Part shown: in pieces, positions 1 to 64,000 of the stretch
Layout of the letters: every line of letters begins with the position of its first letter
Numbering within the stretch: position 1 is the stretch's first letter
Sequence record: PV805632.1
Direction: 5' to 3' (one strand)
DNA length: 64,000 nt
Source of the DNA: a phage
Position numbers and translations under genes: made by a program
The notes under the pieces: model-generated
Seen by the model: only the letters and a program-made list of their open reading frames with translations
Database searches by the model: none
Told to the model about the DNA's origin: nothing

Positions 1-10
1 CGGAGAAGAA

Positions 11-780: not shown

Positions 781-814
781 TTAGTAATTCCATTAACTTT
801 AGGAGAGTAAGTAA

Positions 815-1867: not shown

Positions 1868-1874
1868 TCACAAC

Positions 1875-3050
1875 ATGAACCAGATACCTCAGCACACACT
1901 TAGTGATGAACAACTCATGCGTGAGTATGACCGTATTCAGGCGCAGGCATTTCTTGGACGCAGTGCAGCGTTTTTTGGTTCATTGCTGTGTAGTCTTAAG
2001 TTCTCATGGAAACGTGAGGGCTGTCCCACTGCATGTACCGATGGGATAGAACTCCATTTCAACCCAGACTTCTTTATCTGGATGTGCCCTGATGCAAGAG
2101 AAACGGTGCTAATGCACGAACTCTGGCATGTGGCATACCTACATGGCATCCGTTGTGGAAGCCGTGACCCAGAAGTCTGGAACCAGGCATGTGACCACTT
2201 CATTAACCTTCAGTTAGAGGAAGATGGTTACAAGTTCACTGGTATCGACGAAGGCATTTGCAAAGACCCTCAATATAAAGGATGGGTCGAAGAAGACATC
2301 TACGATGACCTGATGAAGAACCCTCAGAAAAGGCAGAAGCCGTCAGGGGGTGCTGGAGCAGGTCTTGCTGGCGACATGAAAGCTCCCTCTTCGGGGCAGT
2401 CCCAGGGTGCTGTTGTCAACAACGTAGTACGTGCAATGCAAAGCCAGAAGATGGCTGGTGGAATGATGCCCGGTAAAGGTGCTGGTCGTATGGAAGAGGT
2501 TATTACCCAATTCCTTAAACCAGTGGTTCCTTGGCAGGAAGTCCTGCTGAACTTCTTTACCGACATTGATGGTACACACTATACGTGGGCCAGACCTAAC
2601 CGTCGTTTCACTGACGTCTATCTACCTTCTCTGGAAGATGATGAAGGACGCTTACGACACTTAGCCTACTTTGAGGATGTATCTGGTTCTATTAGTAGTG
2701 CTGACTCTCTGCGTTTTAACTCAGAGGTTGCCTACGTTAAGAGCCAGTTCAATCCTAAGAAGATGACCCTAATTACCTTCGACGATATTATCCAAGAAGA
2801 AATAGACATCACTGAAGAAGATACTTTTGAAGAGATTAAGATTACTGGTCGTGGTGGTACAAACCTTGAACCAGTGCGTGAATGGATCATTAAGAATAAG
2901 CCAACCGCTGCAATCATATTCTCCGATATGTATGTTCGTCCTATGGAAGAATTGCCATTTGATATCCCTATCATCTGGTGTGTTCTGAATAATCCTAATG
3001 CTACCGTACCTTTTGGGGAGGTAGTTCATATCCCTAAAGGAATGAAATAA
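1875..3050 (+). CDS. VWA-domain protein (MIDAS motif) with HExxH-like motif, partner of the MoxR-like ATPase
   Basis: MIDAS-like DVSGSIS, HELWH motif; ATG at 1875 chosen because the track start at 1641 overlaps the upstream gene; ATPase-VWA pairing is a known arrangement. Confidence 0.65.
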   Translation: MNQIPQHTLSDEQLMREYDRIQAQAFLGRSAAFFGSLLCSLKFSWKREGCPTACTDGIELHFNPDFFIWMCPDARETVLMHELWHVAYLHGIRCGSRDPEVWNQACDHFINLQLEEDGYKFTGIDEGICKDPQYKGWVEEDIYDDLMKNPQKRQKPSGGAGAGLAGDMKAPSSGQSQGAVVNNVVRAMQSQKMAGGMMPGKGAGRMEEVITQFLKPVVPWQEVLLNFFTDIDGTHYTWARPNRRFTDVYLPSLEDDEGRLRHLAYFEDVSGSISSADSLRFNSEVAYVKSQFNPKKMTLITFDDIIQEEIDITEEDTFEEIKITGRGGTNLEPVREWIIKNKPTAAIIFSDMYVRPMEELPFDIPIIWCVLNNPNATVPFGEVVHIPKGMK

Positions 3051-3556
3051 TGATTGTTAATGGTAATTCTCTATACCGTTCATCTCAATTGCTGGATGTC
3101 CCAGACCGTAAGGTATCCGAGCATGGTGTAAGCTATGGATTAGGCGAAGCTGGTTATGATATTCGTATCAAACAAGACATTACCTTCTATCGCTTATTTG
3201 GGTTAATTCCAATGGTGAAAATCGTTGATGGAAAACAAGTATCACGCCATCTCGGTAAATTCGCATTGGCTTCAGCAATTGAGAAATTCAACATGTCTCC
3301 GTCCTGTGTAGCTATCGTTCACGATAAGTCCACATGGGCAAGACGTGCATTATCTGTGTTCAATACCGTAATAGAACCAGGATGGAAAGGGTATCTTACC
3401 CTCGAACTGGTCTATCATGGTCGTAAGAAACTGCATATCCCGGCTGGTGCTGGGATAGCTCAAGTATTATTTCATCTGGTTCAAGAGCCTGCTAATTACA
3501 ACGGCAAGTATCAGAACCAGGAGGACAAACCAGTAGCTGCAAGAAGCAGTAAATAA
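3050..3556 (+). CDS. dcd: dCTP deaminase (dUTPase-superfamily fold)
   Basis: 168 aa; start overlaps upstream stop (TAATG); sequence resembles dCTP deaminase family from memory. Confidence 0.7.
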   Translation: MIVNGNSLYRSSQLLDVPDRKVSEHGVSYGLGEAGYDIRIKQDITFYRLFGLIPMVKIVDGKQVSRHLGKFALASAIEKFNMSPSCVAIVHDKSTWARRALSVFNTVIEPGWKGYLTLELVYHGRKKLHIPAGAGIAQVLFHLVQEPANYNGKYQNQEDKPVAARSSK

Positions 3557-3565
3557 GGAAACAAC

Positions 3566-3766
3566 ATGTCAGTATTTCAAGTAACTCCTGTTGACAGTAC
3601 CCAACGTAAAACTATTGTTGCAACTAACGTAGTAGATGTAGATGAAACTCCGGCTGGTGCTGTAGTTCATCTGATTGATGGGCGAACTGTAACTGTAAAA
3701 GAAAGCTATCGTTCAGTACGTGGTTACGTCCGTAAAGCTTTAACTGCTGACTCTGACGCAGAGTAA
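3566..3766 (+). CDS. hypothetical protein
   Basis: 66-aa ORF with GGAAACAAC-ATG context; followed by palindromic terminator. Confidence 0.45.
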   Translation: MSVFQVTPVDSTQRKTIVATNVVDVDETPAGAVVHLIDGRTVTVKESYRSVRGYVRKALTADSDAE

Positions 3767-3776
3767 GTAGCTGCCT

Positions 3777-3803
3777 AAATAGCCCAGCATAGCTGGGCTA
3801 TTT
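3777..3803. terminator. palindromic hairpin terminator (9-bp GC-rich stem, 3-nt loop, AAA/TTT flanks)
   Basis: TAGCCCAGC-ATA-GCTGGGCTA at 3780-3800 flanked by AAA and TTT. Confidence 0.5.
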
Positions 3804-25636: not shown

Positions 25637-28600
25637 TCAATTTACAAGGTTTATCCAAGGGTTCAGGTTGTGAGCACGAAGACCCTGACCAAAGCCCCAT
25701 GAGTAATCCAGACTACCCTTAGCAGCAATACTAAAGATGTTGTCCTGAATAGGTAAGCCAACATTACCAAACATGGTAGGAGTTGGAGCCAACATCGCCA
25801 TTGCTGCATGTACTGGGTTGTTACGAATCATGGACACTGCAACCTTAGCTGAACGAATCTTAAAGTTGTAGAACCACATCAAACCAACGCTTTCCATATA
25901 CCCACGGAAGCGACCAGGCAGACGGTCATAGTTAATGAACTCTTCGGTTACACGTCCCAGTGCTTCTTCACGAGTCTTACCTTTACGCTGGGTCAATTCA
26001 TCATAGATGATTGCTTTAGCGATAAAGTCAGAGTACTCAACCGTCTTCTGGATACCCTGGAACAGAGCAGTATCCTTAGTGATAAGTGCATAACGACCAG
26101 CAGCACGTACAGACTTAGGTAACTTATCCGCCAGCTTTTCCATGTATTCGTGAAGTTTACCTTCAGTAATCAGGATGTCATCACGACCAATACCAGCATC
26201 TGCAATTGAAGAGAACTCACCAGCTTCTATCAGAGGCCAGATACTCATACGCTTATGGCTATCAGTAATGGACTGAATCTCAGCCTTAAGTTTACGAATC
26301 TGGTTCGGGTTAGTAGCTGCACGTAATTCTGCTTCTGCATCTACCTGACGTAAACGAGATTTAAGGTATTGGTTAATCTCAGCAGTCTTCCGTGGAATGC
26401 TCTTAGCAATGCTCTTAACCGGTACACCACGAGCAACCATCTGGTAAAGGTTAGCCAAAAAGTTAACAACAGGTACGACTACTGACTTAACTACAATCAG
26501 AGTCTTAGCATCTTTAACTAAATTTTGAACCAGGTTCTCACCACCCATTAAGTACTTATAGGCACGGTTACCGGCTAAACCCAGAATAGCTTTTTTAAAA
26601 GTATTAAGCGTTTCCGGGGACCAACGAGAATTACCAGACCAAGCATCACCAATCGAAGCTGCACGATAGCCAAGTGCATCATTCAGCATGTCACGACGTA
26701 CCCACAGTTCACCCTCACCAAACAGTTTTTCTGCTTTCCGTCGAGTTTCACTGTTCATCAGCTTAAGAGCATCAGCAGTTACTGGGTCCAGTTTAGAACC
26801 AAAAAGGTTCACGTACTGGGACTTATTAGCAGCAGACATCTTAATGTCTTCCTTGTACATGCTATACAGGTTCTCAATCAGCATATCGTTGAAACGCTGA
26901 GCCTTAGCTTCTTCCACCTGACGACCACGCCATACACCAATTGCACGGGCAAGATGATTTTCACCTTCAATATGCTTCAGCATATTAGGGTTAATTGATT
27001 CCTCATAAGCAACCACATCACCTTTAGCATTATATACGGGCAATAGTGGTTCATTACCACGTTCACCACGAGCTAGTGCTTTAGCGATACGGTCTACAGA
27101 AGGCTTGTCAGTAATACGACCAGCTACCATGGAACCCATCGTAAAGCCTGTACCGAGGTCTACACCACCAGCAGTATTACGAACGTTCTGTAGAATACCT
27201 TGTGAGAACGGAGCCTGTGCCTGTACTGGGGCAAAGTAGTAGCTACGTGCCAGACCTCGGTTAGCAGAGCTACCTTGATAAGTACTCAGACGTACATAGG
27301 ACTTCTCTATCAAATCACCAAACTGGCTATCTTCAGCAACAACCAGACTAACACCCTGTTTAGTCTCACTAGGGATATACCCTTTGTACTGGTTCAGGGT
27401 TGCACGCATATTAGATTTGGCTTTAGCCATTTCATCTTTACGCTGCCCAACCAGGTAAGAAGTAGCAAAGTCCATTCCCTCAACTTCTGTCTGAGCCAGT
27501 GAAGATAACATCTCACGGTCGGACTTGTTCATTGCTTCCAGTGCATACAGGGTAATAAGTTTATCCAGTTGAGCTACATCTACAATAGAGCGAGTAGTCT
27601 TACGTTCACCTAACATACGAGAGATTGCAGTAGCATTCCGCAGCAAGTTTTTACCGACTGTGCCATTAATCATGTACTGAGCCAGTTGCTTAGATTTACG
27701 GTTAATCAGAGGCCAGTTACGACCAGCTTGTTTCTGCAAATCTGCTTCCAGCTTATTCACTTCACGGTCAACAATCTTCTGGTCAGATAGCAGGTCACGG
27801 ATTTCAGCCAGAGACATGGTGTCACGCAGGACAGCTAAGTCAGTTTTACCCATACCAGTGTACATTGCTTTCCACTCATCCTTAGTCAGCTTACGGCTGA
27901 ACTTAGATGCGATAGTGGTAGGCAGGTGTTCACGGAACTGCTGACGGTCAGCCTGCACCTGTGCACGAACTGCTTTAATCAAATCGTATACAGAAGCATT
28001 ACTCTTAGTACGACCGGTTAAGTCATTAACCAGGTCATGGAAAGGTTGCCATACTTTACCCTGGTTCATTGCAACCATAACGCCTTCAGCTACGTTTGCA
28101 CCATTCTTCTCTGTAGCAATAGCAGCCATTAGTTGTGCAGCATGAGCAGCACCCTTAACCAATGGATTTTTGGTATTGGCTGCAACTTCACGAGCACTTT
28201 CTAAAACACGGGTAGACAGTACATCAATAGAGTCCACCAAATACTGGTTAGCACGGTCAATAGCATTACCACTAGGAGTAGCAACGGAATCATAGAATGA
28301 CTGTGCATTAAGGCTAGTCTGCATGATTGTTTGAGCCAGTGCATCCATACCTTCCTGTACGTTGGTAGCTTTAGTGTCACCTGCTACACGAGCATTCAGG
28401 CTTGCCATTGCAGCAGTACCAATGTTAGTCAGCATTGCATCGACGGTATTCCCAGATTTCTTATCTGCTTTCATAACAGGAATGTTAGCCAGTACATTAC
28501 GTACCTCTTCACTTACCATTGCCAGACCAACAAAGGTAGGCAGTATTGAAGAACGACCCTGCGCATCAAACTCAATATTGTTAGCACCCATGATGGTATC

Positions 28601-31600
28601 GAACTTCTGCTGTGCATAGTAACGGTCAGCAGGGTTAGTACTATCTGGGTCAGTCATGAATGATTCAACAGTCAGGTTCTTAGTAACGTGTGCATAGTAT
28701 TCCTGTGCACGAGAAAGAGCAGCCGGACTAATAGCAGCTTCAGTAGCGAGTGCAGCAACAATGTTAGTAAAGAGACGCTGCTCCTGCATATTCATAGTGA
28801 AGCCATGAGCCTGAACATCACGGGTTACTTTAGTTGCGTGCTTTTTCGCATCAGAGAACTTACCTTCACGGATTACTTGCTGTACTGGTTCTGAACCAAT
28901 GTAGTTAGTAATCAGCTTATCAAATGTCTGTCCTAACTCTTCCAGACGGGTATTGTCACCATATGCTTTGTTATGGAACAAGGTAGTATCTTTGGCTACA
29001 GCAGCCGTAGGAGCCTGTCCACGCATAACTACTGAAGAGTTAAACAGTAAGCCAGAGAACATATCATCTGCATTAGCAGGTGCTTTCTTGCGACCAAATA
29101 CCAGACGTTTGATTGCTTCATATACTGACTGAACCATGGCTTTCAGTGCAGTGGTCTTCTTCTGCTTACTAATTAATTCACGGTTAGTTAAGCCCCAAGC
29201 CATGTACTCATTCAGTGCAGCAGCTTTAGCCATTGCTGGTTCAATAAAGCCGTTAGACAAGTGACCATTAATGGTATTAAGTGCATCAGCATATGCTTCA
29301 CGTACTGCCGGAGATTCATCCATAACATCCAGATTACGGAACTGGTTCATCAAGTCTTCAATATTCTGGACTGCTTCATTAGGAGTACCCTCATAGTGAG
29401 CCAGTACAGATTCAAAAGTAGAAGCATGTACTAATTCATGAACCAGAGTCTCTAGGGAAGGGGTAACTAAGTAGATGGTTTTATCATCAAAGTTAGTCCA
29501 GCCATACGCATTACCAGCTTCGGCAGCTTCAATATCTTCCGGTGCTGGACGAGTAATGTTCTTCTCAATAGCATAGGCATCCAGTTGAGCAGGAGTACCG
29601 TAAACAACTTTGTAGTCTTTAGCAGCAAGGGATTTCTGTATCTCTTTCAATACTGCTTGCTGTTCTGGAGACATCTCTTTAGCCAGCTTGGTAATAGCAG
29701 TATTAGACAATAGACGTACACCAGACTTAAGTACACGACCAACTTGTTCCATTGCTGGCACTTCTTTAACAGGTGCTTCTTTAGTAGGTACTTCTTTCAC
29801 TGGATCTGCTTTAGCAGCACGTACTGCATCACGACGCTTATTTAATTCAGCATCAAACAGTTCGTTCAGCTTAGCTACTTGCTGGTCTACAGTCAGTCCC
29901 TCAAGAGAAATTTTACCGTTGTTCACATAAGGAGCACCTACAGCAGCCATCTGGTCAACAGTGGTCTGTACCTGGTTCATTACTTTGTGGCGAATATCCA
30001 CACTTAAAGCAATGTTACGCAGGTTACGCTCAATAAGGTTAACACCTGAATTCTTAATCATATCAATCTTATACTGCCTGTCTCCCTCAACGCGACTGAT
30101 ATGAGAAAGCTGTTCAAAATCTAAAGCGGAACGGGCAATGTCATCAATTGTCTTATCTGACAACTTATCAAAGTCTACATTCTTCAAGAACTCAGAGAAG
30201 GATTCATATACAGCCTTGATAGGATTCCCCTGCCAGGAAGTGTATACAGCCTCGTTTGCTTTACGACTTGCATCAGTGATGTCACTAATACCAATGTTCA
30301 TACCATCAAAGATTTTCAGGGTATTCTTCGGAGCACCTTTCATAGTAGAAAGGGTCTGCATCATCATGCCATCACCAGTACCGATGGTCATAAATGGAAT
30401 ACCTGCAACACCTGCTTGTGAAGGAGCATAGATGCTCATTGGCACACGCATACGGTCATCTAAGTTGGTAGCCAGTACTTGGTTAGCAACGTCAGTACTC
30501 TCACTGCCAGCAAGGTAGAAAGTCTGTGAGCCAGTCTCAATCATTGGAGCCAATGGAGATAATGATTCCTGGATTTCATTCAGTTCTTTCTGTGTTAAGA
30601 AATCACCCTTCTTCCAGGTTGGGTCTTTTTCTTTTTCTGCTAGCTTAGCCTGTACTGCTTGCTGGAACATATCCTGCAATACCAGAGACTGAATCTGAGT
30701 AGCCTTCTGCAAGTTCTCAGTAGAGTACATCAGACCTTCACCAACAGTATTACGGATACCGGTACGCATTGGCTCAACGAACAAATGGAGCATGTTCTCT
30801 TGTAAGTTCTTCAGAGCATTACCGGATACGGTAAATTTCTGAGGGTCTAACTTACCAGTCAGAGCACCATCTACTTCCTTAATAAATAACTTACCTTTGC
30901 GCTTAGCTGGAATTTTACCAGTCAGTGCTTCCATAGAAGTAAGGAAGGTATCCAGCATAGCCTGAGCATCTGCCTCAGACGCAGCCTCTTTACCAAACAT
31001 TGCCATAGCCGGGGAAATGCTGGGGTCAGCAGCACGTGCTTGCAGAACGTCGCTGAAACGTTCGTAGATGGTGTCAGTAATTGCACCGACTATATTACCA
31101 GCAATACCACGTGCACCAGCACCATAGATGGTAATGGTCAGGGGGTTTTTAGCGATGCCACGTTTCAGGTCCAGAGTACCATCTTCATTCAGGTTAAAGT
31201 CTTTAATGAACAGGTCCATTAACTTCTGGAGATGATTTATCTGGTTTATAACTGGAACGTTGTTACGGTAAGTAGTACGTAACGCATTCAGTGCTTGTTG
31301 CAGACCATTGGTAGATGCTTCATACAAGTCAACATTATCGTCGATAGAACAATGTTCGTTCATCGTTTTACCAGCACGACCGAAGAACAAACCACCTTTG
31401 GCAGTATTCTTAATCCAGTCTGGGGTGAACTTACCACCAGTCATTAATACCATTGCGTTGATTGGGCCGTTGGTTACACCATCAGCTTCAACGTACAGAG
31501 GGGTAGTAAAATTAGCACGGTCATCACTGTTCAGGTAACGGGCATATTCCATCAGGGCCATGAGAGCTACGAAGGATTTGTTATCACCCAGAGAGGTTTT

Positions 31601-34600
31601 CAGAATATCTACTGCATCAGTAGGTAAATAACCAGACTTATCAAACTCAACCATCATATCAACAGCAGGTTTCAAATTACCTTCCAGAGCTTTGGTCAGA
31701 TTTTCAGACATAGCTTCACGGGACATTTTATGTACCTTGATGCCCAATGCCTGAGCCAGACCTAACTGGAAGTCAGAGAATGCTTGGCTGTTTTCATTAC
31801 TCAAGTCGATAGTGGAGAAGGTTGGCAGAATTGCTTCACGAACCAGTTTACTGGATTGTGGGTTATTCTTACCAAGCATCTGCATACGACCTACACGGGT
31901 CATGTTGTAACCGTAGTGAATGGGGGTATCCAAACCATTCTCTTGTTCTTTTAGCTGATTAATTAAACCGAACAAAGAATCATATGCCATAGATACCGAT
32001 AAGTTCTTACCTTCCAGAGATTTGGCAGTGTTTTCATTCAGCAAATCAGGATTAAGAGAACCAGCACCCATCAGTTCCAGAATGCCGTCTCGGCCTAATG
32101 CTTCATAGAAGTTAACCATCGGCATGTGTACACGGAACTCCGTAGCCTGTTCAGCTTTCAAAGCAGCTTTCTGTTCCGGGGTATTCCTAACAGCAGGGTT
32201 ACGTAACTGAGTTTGAGCCACGGAAGGAATGTCATCACCGAAGTACGTTTTCTCTTCCGGATTTACCAGCACAGCTTCCTCAATTGCTGTAGGGAAATTA
32301 TTAATAGGGTCTTTATCTGCCAACTTATTAATAGTGTACAAACCAATAGTCTTATTAGAATCCGGGTCAATCTCAGACACATCCAGCATAGTCTCAGTAA
32401 CTGCACCCATCTCGATGAGGGAAGACAGAATCTCTGTAGCCATTGCCACTGGAATACCCTTGGTATAACCCAGTGGTGCATTAGGGTTACGGTTTAAACC
32501 CCAGTAGGATTCAATCTTTTGAGCCAGTGAGTTAGTAGCCTCAATCAGAGTCTGGGCATTCTCGAACTCAGCCAGAATACTTTCTGGTAACAGAGATGCA
32601 TCTACACCAGTAATAGCAGCCACGTCTTTCATATCTTTAATGGCAGCATTCTGTGTAGCAGTCAGTCGCCATTGCAGACCAGCAAGTACAGCAGTCTCTA
32701 ACAACTGGTCATTGAACTTAAAGGTATCTCCATCTTTCTCTACGATGTTAAGTAACTTACCACCTACCCAACGGTTAGCCTCAGTACCTTCTGCAAAACG
32801 TTTACCAACATTTTTATTAGCAAGGAACTTAGCCAGTCGTTCAGACAGAGTAGCCTTCAGAGTTTCCCCAAAGTCCATCAAGTCTTGATAGCGTTCTAAC
32901 ACATCACCTGCGAGAACGTTATTTTCTTTTTGAGTGAACGCTTCAAAGCGAGCAGCAGAAGACAGTGCTTGCTTGATATCAGCCAAAGGAGATTCAGAAC
33001 CAATGGTACGGGACTTAGGTTCTTCCGGTAGGGTAAATGCCTTCAGGAACTGGTTCGGTGTCTTCTCATTGTTATAGACAGGGAACACTGCTTCCATTCC
33101 AGAAAGGGGTTTGCCACCCACTGTATAATCTGCTTTCAGCTGAGCCAGTGATACTTCATCCTTCTCCACGTTGTTAGTGTTACGACCAGTGGTATCTACA
33201 CCAACCAGAATCTGTGCATTATTGGCTTCAACGAAAGACTGAACAGTATTGAATTGTTCAGCAGTCAGCTTCTGATTATCAAACAGTTGCAGAGATACAA
33301 ATGGTTGTTCACTGCCTTTATAGAAGGTAGAGCGAATAGCACCTGTATCCAGGGACATATCACGATACCCATCATGCCCAAATACGTCGGACAGGCTGAT
33401 ATGGTCGCCATTAGAACCAACCACAGTACCATCAGCAAACAGCCATGGACTCTCCCTACGATCACCATACTTATTAAGAGTTTCCTGTGAAATAGTATTT
33501 TCTTTCACATAGGCATCTCTTTCAGATTCAGTAGGTTGCTCGATGGTATCCTCATTAGTGGGGGTAGCATCATCTACAACCGGGCTAGTCTTTTCAGACT
33601 TAGGTACTTTCTCTTCCTGTACAGGTGTAACTTCTGGCTGGGAGAATGTATTACGTACATAGTTCATAAAATCATTACGTGCTTGAGAAGGAGAAGACCA
33701 TACTTCCCGTGTGCTACGTAAACTAAAGATTCGACCTTCAGGAGTCATTACGTAAGGTACATTTGTTTTACCGTACTTAAATGAAGTGAGTACATCTGAC
33801 TTACCAGTAACAGTGCTTTCCCCTGGAATGACAATAGTCTTACCACCAGTAGAGGGAACAGCACGAACACCCTCAATATCCTTACCAAGAGAAATATACT
33901 CTTTACCGTTGTAATCAAAGTACTGACCTATCTGCATATAGGTAGCTTGTTGCTTACCAGTAAACTCAGCAGTTTTCATCTCCGGGCCGTTAGGTACAGA
34001 CGTACTTTCAGACTTAGGCTTAGATACTTTCTCTGGTTCTGACTTAGACTCTACAGTGTTAGGAGCAGTTTTATTGTTTACCACTGGTTTAGCTTTAGAC
34101 TGTACAGTAGTAGTGTCCTCTTGCACTGGTGCAGGGGTTTCATCAACCTGATTCACTGGTTCATTAGTCTGTTGGGACTGAGTGGCATTAAGACCACCTT
34201 GACGGAACTCTTTAACTACCTGGGCAGCTGGCTTGTTCAGACGTGAATCCAACGAGGTAACTTTCACATGAGAAACATTAAGCTCCGGGTAAGCCGTAGC
34301 AAGTGCGTTAGCAATATCAGCTACGGTCTTAGCTTCCAGCGCTACTTGCTGGGCAAACTTAACAGACTTGGTATCATAAGGATTAACACCGAGGCCAGTA
34401 CGACTACGTACCCATTCACGCGTAGGCGTGAGAGCCTGATAATGAACAGACTTATTCTTATCCGCATTCCCCGAAATCAGATGCTCATTCAACGCTCCGA
34501 CCTTATTCTGCATGTGCTGGGCGAACTTCATAAAATCGCTCAGATAAGCGGAGGCCAAATCGAAGTTACCAGAGTTATACGCAGAACGAATGCGTTTCGC

Positions 34601-36898
34601 ATGTTGCAACGCAGAGTACTGTCCTTCATTAGAACGAGACTCGTCGGTTTTAATCTGTTTACTAACGATGTCTTGACGACGTAAGCCCAGTTCTTCTGCT
34701 TTAGCATCATACTCACGTGCACCCTGTAACAGAGCAGCAGCTGATTGCAGGGCAGCACGTTGACGATTATTCAGTGTAATCTTACCCTCACTCGCATGCT
34801 TCAGAACCATGTTCACTGAATCTGCATCCAGTACTTCTGGAGACACATCAGCAGCCATAGCAATGTTGTTTGCTTGGGCTTGGTTAGCTTCTTCAGTAGC
34901 TTTCAGCTTACCTGCTTCAGCCTGTTCCTGAATCATAGAATGGATGGCACGGAATGCACGAAGTACTTTAGGGGTATTCTGTATGTTAGCCATCAGACCG
35001 GAGAACTGGTCTACGATTGCAGCAGCAGGGGAACCTTGTTCCAGATTAGCCAGTGCACCTGGGTCACGGTTAATGAAGCTATCCATAGACATGATGTTGT
35101 CATACATCTGGATTGCAGCTTCCATTTGAACGTTAGGGTCTTCAGCAGTATTAACCAGGTCAGCCATCTTCTGAATAGCTTCCACACGGTTAGTGGAACC
35201 AGAAACAGCTTCGCGGATTACTGGGTTAGCTTGCTCCAATTCTACTGGGTCAAACTTCATTGCCTGAGTTAAATCAGCAGCATACTGGGTAGCAGCAGCC
35301 TTCTCTTCTGGAGTGATATCCATTGCATCTACTGCTTCCTGTACAGTTGCTTGTGCTTGCTCTGCCTGAGCAGCAGCTTCCTGTGCAGCAGCATTAACCG
35401 TAGCATCAGCTACAGGGGATGCTTGTTCATTACGCTTAGCAACTTCTTCACCACGTTGAACCAGGATGTTAGTAAGAGGAGATGCAGCTTTTGCTAATGT
35501 TTTACCAACCAGAGAAGCACCAGCCAGAGTAGTACGAAGAGCAGGGCCAGCAGCAGCACCGGCAGCTTTAACAGTTGCACCAGGAGCTTGAGCAACCCCA
35601 GCACTACCGAAGCCATAAAGTGCACCAAGACCAGCTTGCTCACCAACCCCTTTGAGAGTATCTCGGGATGCATCAACATTTTCCTTGATTGCACGGTTCT
35701 GGGCATACTGACCAAAGCCTGACTGAATACCTTCTTCAACTGTTTCACGTAGCATATTGGAACCAGCACCAGCCAGTGAACCTACCTTAAGTGGGTTAAG
35801 TTCAAAGCGAGATACCAGTGGACCGGTAGCAGCAGCAACTGGAGCAGTTAAGCCAGCAGCAAGGATACCTGTTTCAGATGCAGTCTGACGACGTGCTTCA
35901 TCAGGAGATAAACCATCGGCAATATGTTGTTGGTAAACAGGAGACTTACTTGCCAGTTCTGGATGGGACATCTTCATGATTTCAGAAGCAGTCTGTTGGT
36001 ATGCACCACCAGCTTCCATAGCACCGATTGCAATAGCAGGTGCAGCAACACGACCAGTAGACAATGCAACCTGTGCAGGACGTGAACCCAACCCAGCAGC
36101 TAAGGTAATACCCTTAACAGCTTTATCACCACCTACCATTACTTTACCGAGTGCAGATACACCACGGATAAGTGGACCACCGGTAAAGAGGGAACCAACA
36201 CCTTCACTCAGTCCATCTGAGGCAGCCATACCATTATCAAGTGTGTTAGCAACAGAGTCGAAAGCGTCACGACCAATACGAGACAGGGAGGCAACCAAAT
36301 CGCTCTCCCCGTTTTTGATATCCTGTTCATAGAGTTTCTGGTTCTTTTGGGCAGAAATCTGGTTCTGATTCTGAACAACTTTACGGGTAGCATTCAGTGC
36401 ATCAGACTGTAGATTGTGTACACCTTCATTCAACCAATCCATCCCGGAAGCAATGGTTGCCCCGGCATTATCATTGACCAGACCTGCGCCAAGAGCAGCA
36501 ATGCCCCCAAGGGTATTAGCAACACCAAGACCAACACCAGAAAGAGTATCGCCAAATGCTTCTGCGTTAGTACGCTGTTTAGATAAGTCCTGACGTACAG
36601 CATCCGCAGCATTAGCTCGGCTATTAAGAATCTGTAAACCTTGCTCATTACCGTACTTATTAATGATTTCTAATGGGGAGGCTTGAGTGAAATCTGCCTG
36701 AAGTGAACCTGGTTCGAATGCACCGATTCCAAGATTACCTACTCGTCCAGTCTGGAGATTGTAAGCATTCTCTGGGGTTAATTGGAAAGGGTTTTGCCCT
36801 TGTGCAGCTTGCTTCTGAGAGGTTGCAGTAGAGACATCGACTTGCTTAGCATTAGTGATGCTGTCTGCGAAACCTGCCAGACGGTCAAATGTTGACAT
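25637..36898 (-). CDS. giant virion protein consistent with the N4-type virion-encapsidated RNA polymerase (vRNAP)
   Basis: continuous 11.3-kb ORF (3759 aa from the TTG in the track; 3753 aa from ATG 36898 with AGGAAA RBS); size and position in the late operon match the N4 vRNAP; catalytic motifs not verified. Confidence 0.7.
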   Translation of the reverse strand: MSTFDRLAGFADSITNAKQVDVSTATSQKQAAQGQNPFQLTPENAYNLQTGRVGNLGIGAFEPGSLQADFTQASPLEIINKYGNEQGLQILNSRANAADAVRQDLSKQRTNAEAFGDTLSGVGLGVANTLGGIAALGAGLVNDNAGATIASGMDWLNEGVHNLQSDALNATRKVVQNQNQISAQKNQKLYEQDIKNGESDLVASLSRIGRDAFDSVANTLDNGMAASDGLSEGVGSLFTGGPLIRGVSALGKVMVGGDKAVKGITLAAGLGSRPAQVALSTGRVAAPAIAIGAMEAGGAYQQTASEIMKMSHPELASKSPVYQQHIADGLSPDEARRQTASETGILAAGLTAPVAAATGPLVSRFELNPLKVGSLAGAGSNMLRETVEEGIQSGFGQYAQNRAIKENVDASRDTLKGVGEQAGLGALYGFGSAGVAQAPGATVKAAGAAAGPALRTTLAGASLVGKTLAKAASPLTNILVQRGEEVAKRNEQASPVADATVNAAAQEAAAQAEQAQATVQEAVDAMDITPEEKAAATQYAADLTQAMKFDPVELEQANPVIREAVSGSTNRVEAIQKMADLVNTAEDPNVQMEAAIQMYDNIMSMDSFINRDPGALANLEQGSPAAAIVDQFSGLMANIQNTPKVLRAFRAIHSMIQEQAEAGKLKATEEANQAQANNIAMAADVSPEVLDADSVNMVLKHASEGKITLNNRQRAALQSAAALLQGAREYDAKAEELGLRRQDIVSKQIKTDESRSNEGQYSALQHAKRIRSAYNSGNFDLASAYLSDFMKFAQHMQNKVGALNEHLISGNADKNKSVHYQALTPTREWVRSRTGLGVNPYDTKSVKFAQQVALEAKTVADIANALATAYPELNVSHVKVTSLDSRLNKPAAQVVKEFRQGGLNATQSQQTNEPVNQVDETPAPVQEDTTTVQSKAKPVVNNKTAPNTVESKSEPEKVSKPKSESTSVPNGPEMKTAEFTGKQQATYMQIGQYFDYNGKEYISLGKDIEGVRAVPSTGGKTIVIPGESTVTGKSDVLTSFKYGKTNVPYVMTPEGRIFSLRSTREVWSSPSQARNDFMNYVRNTFSQPEVTPVQEEKVPKSEKTSPVVDDATPTNEDTIEQPTESERDAYVKENTISQETLNKYGDRRESPWLFADGTVVGSNGDHISLSDVFGHDGYRDMSLDTGAIRSTFYKGSEQPFVSLQLFDNQKLTAEQFNTVQSFVEANNAQILVGVDTTGRNTNNVEKDEVSLAQLKADYTVGGKPLSGMEAVFPVYNNEKTPNQFLKAFTLPEEPKSRTIGSESPLADIKQALSSAARFEAFTQKENNVLAGDVLERYQDLMDFGETLKATLSERLAKFLANKNVGKRFAEGTEANRWVGGKLLNIVEKDGDTFKFNDQLLETAVLAGLQWRLTATQNAAIKDMKDVAAITGVDASLLPESILAEFENAQTLIEATNSLAQKIESYWGLNRNPNAPLGYTKGIPVAMATEILSSLIEMGAVTETMLDVSEIDPDSNKTIGLYTINKLADKDPINNFPTAIEEAVLVNPEEKTYFGDDIPSVAQTQLRNPAVRNTPEQKAALKAEQATEFRVHMPMVNFYEALGRDGILELMGAGSLNPDLLNENTAKSLEGKNLSVSMAYDSLFGLINQLKEQENGLDTPIHYGYNMTRVGRMQMLGKNNPQSSKLVREAILPTFSTIDLSNENSQAFSDFQLGLAQALGIKVHKMSREAMSENLTKALEGNLKPAVDMMVEFDKSGYLPTDAVDILKTSLGDNKSFVALMALMEYARYLNSDDRANFTTPLYVEADGVTNGPINAMVLMTGGKFTPDWIKNTAKGGLFFGRAGKTMNEHCSIDDNVDLYEASTNGLQQALNALRTTYRNNVPVINQINHLQKLMDLFIKDFNLNEDGTLDLKRGIAKNPLTITIYGAGARGIAGNIVGAITDTIYERFSDVLQARAADPSISPAMAMFGKEAASEADAQAMLDTFLTSMEALTGKIPAKRKGKLFIKEVDGALTGKLDPQKFTVSGNALKNLQENMLHLFVEPMRTGIRNTVGEGLMYSTENLQKATQIQSLVLQDMFQQAVQAKLAEKEKDPTWKKGDFLTQKELNEIQESLSPLAPMIETGSQTFYLAGSESTDVANQVLATNLDDRMRVPMSIYAPSQAGVAGIPFMTIGTGDGMMMQTLSTMKGAPKNTLKIFDGMNIGISDITDASRKANEAVYTSWQGNPIKAVYESFSEFLKNVDFDKLSDKTIDDIARSALDFEQLSHISRVEGDRQYKIDMIKNSGVNLIERNLRNIALSVDIRHKVMNQVQTTVDQMAAVGAPYVNNGKISLEGLTVDQQVAKLNELFDAELNKRRDAVRAAKADPVKEVPTKEAPVKEVPAMEQVGRVLKSGVRLLSNTAITKLAKEMSPEQQAVLKEIQKSLAAKDYKVVYGTPAQLDAYAIEKNITRPAPEDIEAAEAGNAYGWTNFDDKTIYLVTPSLETLVHELVHASTFESVLAHYEGTPNEAVQNIEDLMNQFRNLDVMDESPAVREAYADALNTINGHLSNGFIEPAMAKAAALNEYMAWGLTNRELISKQKKTTALKAMVQSVYEAIKRLVFGRKKAPANADDMFSGLLFNSSVVMRGQAPTAAVAKDTTLFHNKAYGDNTRLEELGQTFDKLITNYIGSEPVQQVIREGKFSDAKKHATKVTRDVQAHGFTMNMQEQRLFTNIVAALATEAAISPAALSRAQEYYAHVTKNLTVESFMTDPDSTNPADRYYAQQKFDTIMGANNIEFDAQGRSSILPTFVGLAMVSEEVRNVLANIPVMKADKKSGNTVDAMLTNIGTAAMASLNARVAGDTKATNVQEGMDALAQTIMQTSLNAQSFYDSVATPSGNAIDRANQYLVDSIDVLSTRVLESAREVAANTKNPLVKGAAHAAQLMAAIATEKNGANVAEGVMVAMNQGKVWQPFHDLVNDLTGRTKSNASVYDLIKAVRAQVQADRQQFREHLPTTIASKFSRKLTKDEWKAMYTGMGKTDLAVLRDTMSLAEIRDLLSDQKIVDREVNKLEADLQKQAGRNWPLINRKSKQLAQYMINGTVGKNLLRNATAISRMLGERKTTRSIVDVAQLDKLITLYALEAMNKSDREMLSSLAQTEVEGMDFATSYLVGQRKDEMAKAKSNMRATLNQYKGYIPSETKQGVSLVVAEDSQFGDLIEKSYVRLSTYQGSSANRGLARSYYFAPVQAQAPFSQGILQNVRNTAGGVDLGTGFTMGSMVAGRITDKPSVDRIAKALARGERGNEPLLPVYNAKGDVVAYEESINPNMLKHIEGENHLARAIGVWRGRQVEEAKAQRFNDMLIENLYSMYKEDIKMSAANKSQYVNLFGSKLDPVTADALKLMNSETRRKAEKLFGEGELWVRRDMLNDALGYRAASIGDAWSGNSRWSPETLNTFKKAILGLAGNRAYKYLMGGENLVQNLVKDAKTLIVVKSVVVPVVNFLANLYQMVARGVPVKSIAKSIPRKTAEINQYLKSRLRQVDAEAELRAATNPNQIRKLKAEIQSITDSHKRMSIWPLIEAGEFSSIADAGIGRDDILITEGKLHEYMEKLADKLPKSVRAAGRYALITKDTALFQGIQKTVEYSDFIAKAIIYDELTQRKGKTREEALGRVTEEFINYDRLPGRFRGYMESVGLMWFYNFKIRSAKVAVSMIRNNPVHAAMAMLAPTPTMFGNVGLPIQDNIFSIAAKGSLDYSWGFGQGLRAHNLNPWINLVN

Positions 36899-36965
36899 AG
36901 CATGTTTCCTGTTCAAACTTATATCGTATATAGGTAACCTACTCTACAGTAAGCCAGTGTAAGAA

Positions 36966-59631: not shown

Positions 59632-59922
59632 TTGAGAATCTATATGAGAGTCATCGACTCTAAAGACGAATACTCAGAGATAGACCATACCAAAGCTGGC
59701 TTTATGGCTGGTGACATAATCCTTACCCATGACGAAGATACATTCCATGAGTTATCTGGAATGATGCTATTAGAGAACCGTCCTGGTATTACCATCTTAG
59801 AACCGCAAGAAACTTACTCTTTAGAAAAGTCTATTCCATCTCTTGTGTTCTTCACAAAATTACCTCATAGTGTCCCCATCAAACGAAGCAAAGATAGCGT
59901 TCGGATGACGGTGATGATGTGA
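59632..59922 (+). CDS. small early protein, member 1 of a tandem paralog family
   Basis: TTG start with AAGGAG 7 nt upstream; shares the motif DEDTFHELSGMMLLEN...ILEP with the next three ORFs. Confidence 0.4.
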   Translation: MRIYMRVIDSKDEYSEIDHTKAGFMAGDIILTHDEDTFHELSGMMLLENRPGITILEPQETYSLEKSIPSLVFFTKLPHSVPIKRSKDSVRMTVMM

Positions 59923-60071
59923 TTAGTCATACCGCCTAGTAGACAGTGGCGGTACTCGTAAAGAGTTAATAACTTCTACAGTCAGGGTTCCCCGGCTCCT
60001 TTCCTACTCCGTAGGTCTAACGGTACATAAGTACCTAGGGGGGTGAACTGACCCGTGATTGAAAACGGTAA

Positions 60072-60108
60072 GGGGTAGGGTCGAGAGGCTCTACCCCATT
60101 TCTTTTTC
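60072..60108 (+). terminator. rho-independent terminator-like hairpin
   Basis: GGGGTAG...CTACCCC stem followed by ATTTCTTTTTCT. Confidence 0.45.
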
Positions 60109-60123
60109 TGGAGGCATGCAATT

Positions 60124-60522
60124 ATGAGCATCTACGCTTTTGATATTGATATTACTGGAGTACTCCGTAAACAGGAACCCTATTACCTTGGGGAACCAGA
60201 AGTAGTAAGTAAGTTCACTGCCCCGTCACAATCAGTATTCTTACCAGATTGCGAAGAGTCCCATGAAGTAATTGGTTCTCTTTTTTTATCCAACCTTCAA
60301 CTTAACACTGTGATATTGTCTGAACCAAGGGTGTATGACCTTACCTATTATGATGGGTTTAACGAGTTCTTCCCCGGCATACGCTTCTATAAGATAGATG
60401 GTTGGGAATTGATAGCTGACCATAACGTCTTTAATAAAACACTTTCCATTTACTTCAGACCTATTCCTAAAGGAAGGAAAATCAATCATGAAATTCATAA
60501 TGACTATCCCCAGTTTTGCTGA
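60124..60522 (+). CDS. small early protein, paralog family member 2
   Basis: motif CEESHEVIGSLFLSN...VILSEP. Confidence 0.45.
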   Translation: MSIYAFDIDITGVLRKQEPYYLGEPEVVSKFTAPSQSVFLPDCEESHEVIGSLFLSNLQLNTVILSEPRVYDLTYYDGFNEFFPGIRFYKIDGWELIADHNVFNKTLSIYFRPIPKGRKINHEIHNDYPQFC

Positions 60523-60802
60523 AAATGAATCCATGTACACAACTGACTTCACTTTAGAAGAGGTCATGAACAGCAACCCTCATCAAGTAATCCTGGTTCC
60601 TACTTTAGAGGATTATCACGAAGTAAGGGGTCAGTTATTCTTAGCAGGCAATGACCGTAAGGTTGTATGCATTATCCCACCTTCTGTCTATACCAACTAT
60701 AACGCTAATGACCCCATACCGTACATGCTGGTATCCGATGAATACCAATGGGGGAGTCGTTACGAGAATGGTGAATATCATTACTACTATGTAAGGAAGT
60801 AG
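60488..60802 (+). CDS. small early protein, paralog family member 3
   Basis: motif LEDYHEVRGQLFLAGN...CIIPPSVY aligns with member 2. Confidence 0.45.
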   Translation: MKFIMTIPSFAENESMYTTDFTLEEVMNSNPHQVILVPTLEDYHEVRGQLFLAGNDRKVVCIIPPSVYTNYNANDPIPYMLVSDEYQWGSRYENGEYHYYYVRK

Positions 60803-60805
60803 GGT

Positions 60806-61102
60806 ATGCACCTGTACTGCCTGATTAGCTATGCCACTACCTGTTATCTATCCCCGTATACAATGGATAATATCCTGGCAGGTAAGGGGAGTGTTGCCAC
60901 CATCCTATATGAACCAAGTGAAGAAGCAGAAGTATTCCTGGGTACTTGCTTAATACTGGGGCAACCTATCCAGTTCATTAAGATAGTGGATTCTGTGGAA
61001 ATACCGGAGCACACCTGTGTGTACATACTGTCTGATAAAGAACCTATGGTAGCTACTACTCTTACAGGTAGACTCATTACCCGAAAGCTCCCTCCTATTT
61101 AA
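60806..61102 (+). CDS. small early protein, paralog family member 4 (more diverged)
   Basis: motif SEEAEVFLGTCLILGQ. Confidence 0.4.
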   Translation: MHLYCLISYATTCYLSPYTMDNILAGKGSVATILYEPSEEAEVFLGTCLILGQPIQFIKIVDSVEIPEHTCVYILSDKEPMVATTLTGRLITRKLPPI

Positions 61103-61128
61103 CTGCTTATAAGTGAGATAGCTATAAT
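61099..61128 (+). promoter_or_regulatory. candidate sigma70-type promoter
   Basis: TTAACT (61099-61104), 18-bp spacer, TATAAT (61123-61128); by-eye match only. Confidence 0.3.
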
Positions 61129-61206
61129 ATTTTTGCATGTCAAAAATGTGATAGTTATGTATGGCTACAGTGGTGTGGCTAGGGCTACACCCTTACACGT
61201 TAACTA

Positions 61207-61220
61207 CCCCCCCCCCCCCC
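61207..61220. repeat. homopolymeric poly-C tract (14 nt)
   Basis: CCCCCCCCCCCCCC read directly from the sequence. Confidence 0.9.
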
Positions 61221-61326
61221 GGTATGTTGACTCATGGGTGTACTACCCTACCCCACCTTACACGTTACACGTTGCTCCGCAACTTATGGACATGTCGTCC
61301 TATCATCAACTATTGGAGCTATCATC

Positions 61327-61650
61327 ATGACTACTACCGCTACTGTACGTATGACCGCAGGAACTCTGCTGGGTACTGTTAACTCTGCTGCTACTACTGT
61401 TGCAGATTCATTCGGTGCTGCTACTAAAGCAGTTGGTATGCTTAATTCTTACGTAGCTACTATGGCAAAGAAACAAGCCATTCGTACTAAATTAGAAATG
61501 CATACTTTCGAAAACAAATTAGCTGAAGAAACAGCTATGAACGAGACTATGCGTAAGAAAAGTATCGAAGAATTCTGCAAAGATCCAGAAAACGCTCGTA
61601 TCTACAACGCAGAATATTCAAGAATAATTGACATCCTGTCTAAAGACTAA
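61327..61650 (+). CDS. hypothetical protein
   Basis: ATG 61327 with GGAG 8 nt upstream; the longer track ORFs run through the poly-C tract. Confidence 0.45.
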   Translation: MTTTATVRMTAGTLLGTVNSAATTVADSFGAATKAVGMLNSYVATMAKKQAIRTKLEMHTFENKLAEETAMNETMRKKSIEEFCKDPENARIYNAEYSRIIDILSKD

Positions 61651-61653
61651 ATC

Positions 61654-61680
61654 AATAGGAGGCTCTTCGAGCCTCCTATT
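61654..61680. promoter_or_regulatory. perfect 12-bp stem / 3-nt loop hairpin (terminator or hairpin-type promoter)
   Basis: AATAGGAGGCTC-TTC-GAGCCTCCTATT immediately after a stop codon; no U-tract. Confidence 0.5.
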
Positions 61681-61740
61681 AAGGGCATTAGATAGATAGA
61701 TAGTCAGTTCTGTATAAAAAGATAGGAGAGATACCTACTA

Positions 61741-61886
61741 TGAGCAAACTAAAAAACGCATTCATGCTGATTGTCAGTGTCCTTGCACTTGTTGCTATGG
61801 TTTCCGTATACATTGGAAAACCTCTGGTAAACACTGACTATGGTCATGGTCAGAAAGTAAAATCCATCCTGCTAATGGATAAGTAA
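61741..61886 (+). CDS. hypothetical small membrane protein (48 aa)
   Basis: hand-translated; single hydrophobic helix FMLIVSVLALVAMVSVYI. Confidence 0.3.
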
Positions 61887-62070
61887 AATGTCCCTGAATC
61901 TAAATCACCGTAAGAATCTCTGGATATCTTACATACCCTAAAAGACAACGACGCTCCGCGTCTTATGGATGATGTAAATGCATCCACTAATCATTGAAAT
62001 TTTATCCTTTTGTTTGGGTGTTCTCACCGACGAGTTCACCCGTAAATCACATAAATCTGGAGAGTACAAA

Positions 62071-62454
62071 ATGTCTATTCAAAAATTCACTTTCGGTCAA
62101 TCTAACGCTGCTGCTACTTCTACTGCTAAAACTGATAAACCAAAAGCTCAGTTCTGGCTGAACATTGGTTATGTAGCTAATGAAGGCTCTGATGATGAGA
62201 AATTCATCTCGCTGCCTACTGGTATTCCACTGGATACTCAGGAACCACTGCCAACTAACAGCAGCAATGCTGACTTCCGTGCTATGCGTTGTGCACAGAA
62301 CGATTTGTTAGAACAGTTAATCGAATATGCTCAGAACCTGAAACCAGGTGAAGAAGGCATCATTAACCTGCAAGTTCAACTTCGTCGTGTGAAAGCAGAG
62401 GCTGCTGACATCCCAGCAGACGAGAATAAATATGCTCGTAAACTGACTTTCTAA
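62071..62454 (+). CDS. hypothetical protein
   Basis: ATG 62071 with GGAGAG RBS; the track start at 61978 lacks an RBS. Confidence 0.45.
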
Positions 62455-62463
62455 TCAACCACT

Positions 62464-62492
62464 GGACTCCCTTCGGGGAGTCTTTTATTTTT
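62464..62492 (+). terminator. rho-independent terminator
   Basis: GGACTCCC-TTCG-GGGAGTC followed by TTTTATTTTT. Confidence 0.65.
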
Positions 62493-62597
62493 AACTCAGC
62501 GATAAACTAAGTTTAACTTTTAGGGGCTTTTCGACGAAGAGTCACTAAAACTTAAACGTAAACAGAAGCAGATAACTTAGAGTAAGGAGTAATCAAG

Positions 62598-62897
62598 ATG
62601 CGTACACTATGTAACCGTTATAATCCAACCGGACTGATTAACATCATGGCCTTATATGGTAGCAAAATGACTTATGGTGCTCGTTGGCAAGTGTCTGTAG
62701 AAGACAAGAATGGCAAATGTCATGACCACTACTTCGTAGCTAAGCCTACTCGTAAACAAATCCGTAAACTTCACAAAGTACGTAAGCATTACTTACTAAG
62801 TAAATGCTACGAATGTGGCAAAAGGATAGAACTAGGTAAAGAATTTACTTTTGATGATCTCAACTATGCTCACAATAACTGCTTAGGAACTAAATAA
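62598..62897 (+). CDS. hypothetical protein with Cys/His cluster (possible zinc ribbon)
   Basis: CHDH ... CYECGK ... HNNC. Confidence 0.4.
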   Translation: MRTLCNRYNPTGLINIMALYGSKMTYGARWQVSVEDKNGKCHDHYFVAKPTRKQIRKLHKVRKHYLLSKCYECGKRIELGKEFTFDDLNYAHNNCLGTK

Positions 62898-62898
62898 A

Positions 62899-63303
62899 AT
62901 GACTACTCATAAAATTGTAAAAAGCTGGACTACTGAAGCTGGTTTATCTGCTGTAATCCTGCTAGTAAATGATGGTTCTCACCATTGTGGTTACGTAGCA
63001 TTGCCTGCTGATTTAGCAGACAAAGACTTTATTAATTATGATCCAGAAGAATCCATTTCTGTTCATGGTGGTGTTACCTATCAAGATGCACTTCCTCAAT
63101 TAGAGGATAAAATCGCTATCGGTTTTGATTGTGCTCATCACGGTGACCTCATGAAATGCCCTGAGAAGTACAAAGGTACTCCTCTGGAAGGACTGCGCAT
63201 GTATTCAGAAGGTGTATGGCGAGATGAGCAATATTGCACCAATGAGTGTGAGTCTATGGCTAAACAACTAATGGCAATGTTGCCTAAACAACTAGAAGGA
63301 TAA
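62899..63303 (+). CDS. hypothetical protein with His-rich motifs (possible metal-binding)
   Basis: GSHHCGY ... CAHHGD. Confidence 0.4.
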   Translation: MTTHKIVKSWTTEAGLSAVILLVNDGSHHCGYVALPADLADKDFINYDPEESISVHGGVTYQDALPQLEDKIAIGFDCAHHGDLMKCPEKYKGTPLEGLRMYSEGVWRDEQYCTNECESMAKQLMAMLPKQLEG

Positions 63304-63307
63304 TGCT

Positions 63308-63460
63308 ATGAAGCTACTAGCAGAGATTCTGTGTATTTTATTAATGATACTGCTGGTAGCTGCATTTCCGTGGCTATTAGCCGTAGGCATTATTATTGGT
63401 ATGCTCGTAGCCGGAGCGAGTGATGCTCGTGGCAGAGATGAGCCAGGTGGAGATGTGTAA
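63308..63460 (+). CDS. small hydrophobic membrane peptide (50 aa)
   Basis: hand-translated MKLLAEILCILLMILLVAAFPWLLAVGIIIGMLVAGASDARGRDEPGGDV. Confidence 0.35.
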   Translation: MKLLAEILCILLMILLVAAFPWLLAVGIIIGMLVAGASDARGRDEPGGDV

Positions 63461-63658
63461 ACACTGCCAGAAGAGTATGTACGGGGGAACCAGTGATATT
63501 CACTAACATTGAGGATGCCATTGAAGAATGTATCTTCCGTAGATATCACACTGGAGTACAGAAACGACACTATGGTGTTGTGCAACTCAATGGCTATCAA
63601 ATGGCTGTAAGAATTGTACGTAACAATAAACCTTTTAACTTTATGTGGAGTACTAAAC

Positions 63659-63787
63659 ATGCGTAAGTCATTAATCATGGGAACCAAAGCTGACGTACAA
63701 AAGATGAAAGAGCGTCTGGCTGCTAAGCAACAGGCATCTGAACCAGTACGTAAGATTGTTACCTTCAATCATCCGTGCATCAAATAG
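63659..63787 (+). CDS. hypothetical small protein (42 aa)
   Basis: hand-translated ORF ending just before a strong terminator. Confidence 0.3.
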   Translation: MRKSLIMGTKADVQKMKERLAAKQQASEPVRKIVTFNHPCIK

Positions 63788-63789
63788 TA

Positions 63790-63821
63790 AGGAGTCCTCC
63801 AATAGGAGGCTCCTATTTTTT
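63790..63821 (+). terminator. rho-independent terminator
   Basis: AGGAGTCCTCC-AATA-GGAGGCTCCT (1-nt bulge) followed by TTTTTTATTTTT. Confidence 0.65.
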
Positions 63822-64000
63822 ATTTTTGAATAGTTAGATATGTATTTAAATAGGAGAAAGAACCTTGAATGAAATAGTATGCATACTTCCACACTTAGCT
63901 AAAGTAGCTGATAGGAATATACGGATACATTTACCCTTCCCATTAAGTAACCCATTCACTCGTAATGAAAGAACCACAGTAGAGGATATAGAGGTAGCTT

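Follow-up and report, generated by a model that had tools for sequence, protein, structure and literature searches.

We analysed two hairpins that lie downstream of early genes in a phage DNA stretch of 64,000 nucleotides (sequence record PV805632.1, hereafter the window). From window position 61183 to 64000 the sequence is 95.7% identical to Escherichia phage vB_EcoP_G7C (its positions 7-3290), and a 12-kb internal segment is 96.6% identical to the same genome. Judged by these alignments, the source phage is a Gamaleyavirus, a G7C-like or N4-like coliphage that is ~96% identical to G7C. Window position ~61177 corresponds to G7C position 1, i.e. the left genome terminus, which is here joined to the right end, and both hairpins therefore fall in the early region. 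The enzyme that transcribes this region in N4 is the injected virion RNA polymerase, vRNAP (PMC4496689). The flanking genes across 59632-64000 are all rightward. They include the homologue of N4 gp1 (61327-61650, + strand, 107 amino acids), which is identified from the list of open reading frames (ORFs), the G7C annotation (similar to N4 gp1) and tblastn (18 loci). Hairpin 1 follows gp1, and a small gp1.1-like ORF (61740-61886, + strand, 48 amino acids; the G7C homologue is gp1.1) lies between this hairpin and the promoter P2. Next come gp2 (61978-62454, + strand; from the ORF list, labelled 'RNA polymerase RNAP1 subunit A' in the G7C record), which is a cofactor of RNAPII (PMC4496689), and, further downstream, a gp6 homologue (63659-63787, + strand, 42 amino acids), which hairpin 2 follows.

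Hairpin 1 (61654-61680, + strand) begins 4 nt past the gp1 stop codon TAA (61648-61650). An earlier note on this DNA had described it as a perfect 12-bp stem with a 3-nt loop and no U-tract, and this description holds: the two arms AATAGGAGGCTC and GAGCCTCCTATT enclose the loop ttc, and the sequence 3' of the 12-bp stem is AAGGGC, without a T-run. The 61-nt context has an RNA minimum free energy (MFE) of -20.8 kcal/mol (z = -3.4), a value that no shuffle out of 200 attains; the template strand folds as DNA at -11.9 kcal/mol (z = -5.8). By our own arithmetic, a perfect 12-bp palindrome is expected by chance ~0.004 times per loop size in 64 kb, so hairpin 1 itself is not a chance structure. Hairpin 2 (63791-63827, + strand) begins 4 nt past the gp6 stop codon TAG (63785-63787). 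In its favoured and conserved stem, 63791-63800 (GGAG(t)CCTCC, with T63795 bulged) pairs with 63805-63813 (GGAGGCTCC) across an AATA loop, and the 61-nt context folds at -18.1 kcal/mol. A U-run (TATTTTTTATTTTT, 63814-63827) stands directly 3' of this stem, which bears out the long T-run that the same note had reported for the second post-stop hairpin. Searching Rfam with 61000-64000 on both strands (E <= 1) returned zero matches.

The position of hairpin 1 is conserved. Only 5 gp1 loci were found in IMG/VR, and relatives were therefore drawn from GenBank phage records; we located gp1 in 17 relatives (N4 included) and folded the 75 nt after each stop codon. An orthologous hairpin is present a few nt past the gp1 stop in 15 of the 17, N4 among them, and in G7C and Jgk1 an unrelated hairpin directly follows the stop. 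The usual form, found in most Gamaleyavirus genomes and in N4, is (A)GGAG[G/A]CTC-TTCG-GAGTCTCC(T), then TTTTAT or GTTTTG. The tail reads UUUUAU or UGUUUUG in 12 of the 15 orthologues and is missing in ZQ2 and the two Klebsiella phages. Moo19 and these two Klebsiella phages have other stem sequences at the post-gp1 site. The G7C homologue of hairpin 1 sits after an 85-bp insertion (GGAGGCTC-TTC-GAGCC-CC-TTTTAAGGGC), where it has the same TTC loop and has kept a TTTT tail.

Pairing is maintained across these genomes. In a 16-sequence alignment, 98.3% of the cells are paired and both sides have changed in five of the nine pairs; the covariation score is reached by none of 500 shuffles, and slid controls are 37-62% paired. 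One of the pairs occurs as G·U (4 sequences), A-U (6) or G-C (3). Hairpin 1 combines two marks of a terminator, a stable GC-rich RNA stem-loop right after a co-oriented stop codon and compensatory changes at the orthologous site. G·U pairs and a UUCG tetraloop are properties of the + sense RNA and not of a template-strand DNA hairpin, and the G·U pairs argue for a structure at the level of the RNA rather than of the DNA.

The post-gp1 hairpin of N4 (EF056009, 493-516) reads GGAGGCTC-CTCG-GAGTCTCC-TTTT. It shares with hairpin 1 the position after the gp1 stop and ahead of P2, the 5' arm GGAGGCTC and the orientation, but its stem of 8 bp includes a G·U pair, its loop is 4 nt long and its tail reads TTTT, whereas the window has a perfect 12-bp stem, a 3-nt loop and TATT within the stem. 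In Escherichia phage vB_EcoP_SP5M (MT682708; Gamaleyavirus), terminators are annotated at 455-501, 1661-1701 and 2498-2544. These are the homologous sites after gp1, gp2 and gp6, and the annotations are computational, not experimental. The SP5M post-gp1 hairpin (AGGAGACTC-TTCG-GAGTCTCCT, then GTTTTG) has a U-tract, unlike that of the window.

Compared with the family consensus of the post-gp1 hairpin (GGAGGCTC-UUCG-GAGUCUCC-UUUUAU), the window has lost one loop base (UUCG to UUC), carries a U to C change that turns a G·U pair into G-C, and has TATT in place of TTTT. The upstream AATA is ancestral, as it is present in F22, Bas96 and others. The T-to-A change therefore allowed AATA to pair with TATT, which lengthened the stem from 8 to 12 bp and weakened the U-tract in one step.

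Taken together, we consider that both hairpins probably form as RNA stem-loops in early transcripts that run rightward, where they mark the 3' ends of the early transcription units. With similar assurance, hairpin 1 appears to be the orthologue of a conserved post-gp1 terminator or attenuator hairpin. The earlier note had offered a non-canonical terminator as one alternative for hairpin 1, and the post-gp1 orthologues together with the SP5M terminator annotation favour it. Alongside the observed hairpins, their orthology and covariation and the true promoter locations, we infer termination activity, its efficiency and the polymerase that responds.

Several points weigh against terminators at these sites, above all at hairpin 1. 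A terminator scan of the + strand did not call hairpin 1. Efficient intrinsic termination there is doubtful, given that no U-tract follows the 12-bp stem; the U-run is absent when the full stem is taken (AAGGGC) and is a weak UAUU if the 8-bp GC core is taken instead. That N4 early transcripts end at such hairpins enters here as general background, and our literature search found no transcript-end data for this phage or any Gamaleyavirus. In addition, the template loop C-GAA-G of hairpin 1 is a motif reported to promote extrusion of N4 promoters (PMC4496689).

The weakening of the U-tract could also mean that hairpin 1 is a decayed terminator, one that stops no polymerase and acts as a 3' or internal stabiliser against exonucleases or is effectively neutral. 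The degradation of the U-tract to UAUU-AAGG fits this, as do the similarly T-poor tail of ZQ2 (GTTAAGGGC), the Klebsiella relatives that likewise have no T-run, and the need of the downstream gp1.1 for read-through. The stem, however, has been maintained and even improved (12 perfect pairs, with G-C for G·U), which argues for continuing selection on the structure, and the TTTT tail is kept in G7C, the closest relative. Single-subunit polymerases can, moreover, react to a strong hairpin even when few U residues come after it. We therefore regard a decayed terminator as unlikely, though it is the least improbable of the rival explanations.

Two further readings of hairpin 1 were rejected. The first is a terminator for leftward transcription. 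The scan did call a - strand tail (TTTAGTCTTT), yet this is judged incidental because it is the complement of the gp1 codons AAA GAC TAA and because the flanking genes are rightward. The second is a processing site for RNase III, which normally needs roughly two helical turns; a 12-bp stem is too short.

Hairpin 2 has the features of a canonical factor-independent (intrinsic) terminator and, on its structure and conservation, is classed as such after gp6. Across 10 relatives, neither the 5' arm GGAGTCCTCC nor the T-run changes, and pairing is kept although the loop (AATA, AACA, ATTA or ATTG) and the 3' arm (GGAGG-CTCC, GGAGGGCTTC, GGGGGACTTC or GGAGG-ATCC) both differ. An alternative fold (AATAGGA-GGC-TCCTATT), in which the 13-mer shared with hairpin 1 (see below) would form the 5' arm, was rejected, as it is not the MFE structure and is broken in the four relatives with ATTA or ATTG loops.

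A third hairpin of the same type follows gp2 (62464-62493, + strand; GGACTCCC-TTCG-GGGAGTCT, then TTTATTTTTA). It is near-identical in all relatives, and the SP5M and PhAPEC7 records carry a terminator annotation at its site. Class I terminators (hairpin plus U-run) of T7-like single-subunit polymerases and bacterial intrinsic terminators consist of a GC-rich stem-loop after a stop codon, as is found here. Hairpin 2 and the gp2 terminator, each with a full hairpin and U-run, resemble them. Unlike class I terminators, hairpin 1 has no free U-run; its UAUU pairs with an upstream AAUA, as in symmetric A-tract/U-tract terminators. Other terminator-like hairpins of the window have similar TATTT(T) tails.

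The N4 early region is read from DNA-hairpin promoters, and the earlier note had suggested that hairpin 1 might be a signal of this type. In N4 the heptamer GCTYCGC occurs at P1 (93-99), P2 (562-568) and P3 (4551-4557), upstream of gp1, gp2 and gp15, respectively. The early region in the window holds just two matches, at 61274-61280 and 61953-61959. The first belongs to a P1 homologue (61271-61288, + strand; GTTGC-TCC-GCAAC-TTAT-GG), whose hairpin spans 61271-61283 upstream of gp1, with a predicted +1 G at 61288; it aligns to N4 P1 (90-106). The second belongs to a P2 homologue (61950-61967, + strand; GACGC-TCC-GCGTC-TTAT-GG), whose hairpin spans 61950-61962 directly upstream of gp2, with a predicted +1 G at 61967; its N4 counterpart is P2 (559-575). 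Both have the form of canonical vRNAP early promoters. The putative P2 of the Klebsiella phage KP8 (AAGACGCTCCGCGTCTTATGGA) is almost identical to the P2 homologue of the window (PMC6950046). Each of the 19 genomes compared (the window and 18 relatives) has the architecture NNNGC-TYC-GCNNN-NNNN-GG at the equivalent sites, in 2-5 copies per early region, and the putative promoters published for KP8 conform to it as well (PMC6950046). The stem is a perfect 5 bp at every one of the 55 promoter-like sites of the 19 genomes, and the GG start is missing from a single site, a G7C copy that has CG.

Promoter extrusion needs a closing C:G pair and a template-strand loop with 5'G and 3'A, and vRNAP specifically recognises -11A/G, -10G, -8G and +1C (PMC4496689). 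The vRNAP of the window (ORF 25637-36916, - strand) is 68.6% identical to that of N4 over the mini-vRNAP domain. Its promoter-contact residues K114, R119, W129, K268, K849, K850, D901 and R904 are conserved, and K267 is replaced by N. Among them, K114, R119, W129, D901 and R904 are the residues that read -10, -11, -9/-10 and -8. As the contact residues are kept, the N4 promoter rules should apply to this phage.

Hairpin 1 resembles N4 P1-P3 in its 3-nt loop, in the template C-G(A/G)A-G at the loop and in its location in the leftmost early region. On the template strand it reads CTC-GAA-GAG, so that the loop and closing C:G fit the promoter requirement. One could therefore propose that hairpin 1 is an extra vRNAP promoter that is extruded from supercoiled DNA and starts a transcript for gp1.1. 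With its 3-nt loop and template 5'-GAA-3' closed by C:G it satisfies the extrusion rules as well as -10G, the -11 purine and -12A (PMC4496689), its orientation suits rightward transcription, and the downstream gp1.1 has no canonical promoter. Yet the stems of N4 P1-P3 are 5-7 bp long, their GC-TYC-GC heptamer provides the template -8G, and a single-stranded spacer of 4 nt leads to a template +1C (GG start); hairpin 1 departs from them in stem length, at -8 and at +1.

The template base at -8 is T instead of the required G (the coding strand reads TC-TTC-GA, with A at -8). The base at the +1 distance (61678, A) lies inside the stem and is T on the template instead of C; template -8G and +1C are both required (PMC4496689). 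The 12-bp stem would bury -4 to +3, compared with promoter stems of 5-7 bp, and the predicted promoters of the 19 genomes all have a 5-bp stem, GC-TYC-GC and a 4-nt spacer. The vRNAP also retains the N4 contact residues, including R904, the reader of -8G. Finally, the loop in orthologues of hairpin 1 is a 4-nt UUCG, and their G·U pairs would turn into A·C mismatches on the template strand. The comparison with the N4 promoters thus speaks against the suggestion of the earlier note, and an additional promoter at hairpin 1 is extremely unlikely. A promoter on the opposite strand was rejected as well, because the + strand loop is TTC and not G-N-A.

The palindrome could nevertheless act at the DNA level. 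Hairpin 1 is a perfect 27-nt palindrome with the template loop C-GAA-G, and it is conceivable, although highly improbable in our judgement, that it forms a cruciform in the gyrase-supercoiled injected DNA. Such a cruciform might be a binding, pause or decoy site for vRNAP or SSB, or it might stop the virion polymerase specifically, with no need for a U-tract. The loop motif is its sole positive support.

The two hairpins share a 13-mer, CAATAGGAGGCTC, which the earlier note had placed at two post-stop sites and described as a shared motif. The exact copies are there, at 61653-61665 and 63800-63812, and the + strand of the whole window has no third; the only further near-matches are its palindromic partners on the - strand. 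Random sequences resampled from a first-order Markov model hold ~40 repeated 13-mers, compared with 105 in the window, and a repeated 13-mer turns up in 8.6% of the versions of the 3-kb region randomised in this way. The repeat alone is thus weak evidence and, unlike the hairpins, is not beyond chance.

Furthermore, the first copy of the 13-mer makes up the 5' arm of hairpin 1, whereas the second runs from the final 5'-arm base of hairpin 2 through its loop and 3' arm. Because its structural role differs between the two hairpins, it is not a common functional signal, and no structure-recognising factor can read both copies alike. Both sites carry the 13-mer in just three of the relatives fetched (F22, Bas96 and IMGVR_3300018472), and in most other relatives the two sites have just TAGGAG in common. 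The 13-mer is probably a by-product of two terminators that are both made of GGAGG/CCTCC-type arms flanked by AATA...TATT; it has been passed down within one sub-lineage and is not a recognition motif.

Alternatively, the 13-mer may record sequence exchange between terminators by gene conversion or recombination, the hairpins providing homology patches that bound mosaic early-gene modules. The early region is indeed highly mosaic and the gene content between the conserved hairpins differs among relatives; G7C carries the 85-bp insertion and an HNH gene with duplicated motifs on either side, and the 13-mer is inherited at both sites in F22, Bas96 and one IMG/VR contig. Nevertheless, 13 nt is very short, the frequency of such repeats in the randomised 3-kb region, the different structural roles of the two copies and the short TAGGAG common to most relatives all count against exchange, and a recombinant junction at the motif was not seen. 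We judge this explanation very unlikely.

If the two hairpins are terminators, as we favour, transcription of the early region would proceed as follows. Transcripts made by vRNAP from P1 (+1 at ~61288) would cross gp1 and form hairpin 1. Part of them would end or be stabilised there, hairpin 1 acting as a leaky terminator that also stabilises 3' ends, and read-through would supply gp1.1. We detected no promoter of its own for gp1.1 and no promoter-type hairpin within 61681-61739, so this gene would depend on read-through. P2 (+1 at ~61967) would serve gp2, with the transcript ending at the strong terminator at 62464-62493, and the transcription of the small genes downstream of gp2 would end at hairpin 2.

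In its termination properties, the mini-vRNAP matches the full enzyme (PMC4496689). In the N4-like Pseudomonas phage LUZ7, ONT-cappable-seq revealed leaky terminators, regulated or stage-dependent read-through and nested transcription units (PMC9163698). LUZ7 thus offers an N4-like transcription programme with many read-through terminators, as proposed for hairpin 1, but it is a distant relative that has no sequence homology at the hairpin sites.

The hairpins are of an already known kind, namely N4-like early-region terminators that are orthologous to N4 structures and annotated in the congeneric SP5M. For annotation, the analysis places two canonical vRNAP hairpin promoters and three terminator hairpins in a G7C-like early region, and the post-gp1 hairpin is conserved across N4, G7C, Moo19 and the Klebsiella N4-like phages compared. 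It is of some interest that one T-to-A substitution is what turns a terminator made of a hairpin and a U-tract into a longer hairpin that has no U-tract. Hairpin 1 is therefore a natural variant for asking how much U-tract termination by the virion RNA polymerase needs.

Elsewhere in the window, another hairpin that follows a stop codon and combines 12 perfect base pairs with a 3-nt loop lies at 3777-3803 (AAATAGCCCAGC-ata-GCTGGGCTATTT), between the ORF at 3566-3766 and the one from 3840 onward. It has the same AATAG...CTATT outer pairs as hairpin 1 and no free T-run. Terminators with the U-rich tail paired to an upstream A-rich stretch thus seem to be used often by this phage. Another terminator-like hairpin, GGGGTAGGGTC-GAGA-GGCTCTACCCC with a T-rich tail, is found at 60072-60097 in the right-end cluster of small rightward ORFs.

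At the genome-end junction (61177-61220), the right end is joined to the left end, so that either the assembly is circularly permuted or a terminal repeat has been collapsed. A run of 14 C follows the junction at 61207-61220; the equivalent position in N4 carries a shorter one. The direct terminal repeat (DTR) annotated for Mimir124 ends at position 403, within gp1 and ~70 nt ahead of the hairpin. A tie of hairpin 1 to the terminal-repeat boundary was rejected on this basis.

The ~85-bp insertion of G7C lies at 462-546, between the end of gp1 and the homologue of hairpin 1. It contains a hairpin, AATCCCCA-GAAA-TGGGGATT, that is also found in Jgk1, and a promoter-like hairpin (AACGC-TCC-GCGTT-GTTT-CG) without the GG start. 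The similar short repeats AGGACTAA and AGGCTAAA flank the insertion.

Approximately 45 nt past the gp2 terminator, at 62528-62539, lies an exact 12-mer, TTTTCGACGAAG, that is identical in N4, G7C, Bas96, Moo19, Jgk1 and two Klebsiella N4-like phages. Other relatives have CTTTAGACGAAG at this spot, and IMGVR_3300018472 has TTTTCGGCGAAG. The 12-mer also lies at 2338-2349 of G7C and at 1145-1156 of another genome record compared. In G7C, two copies of it flank the inserted HNH gene. This strongly conserved non-coding element is possibly a middle promoter or a factor-binding site.

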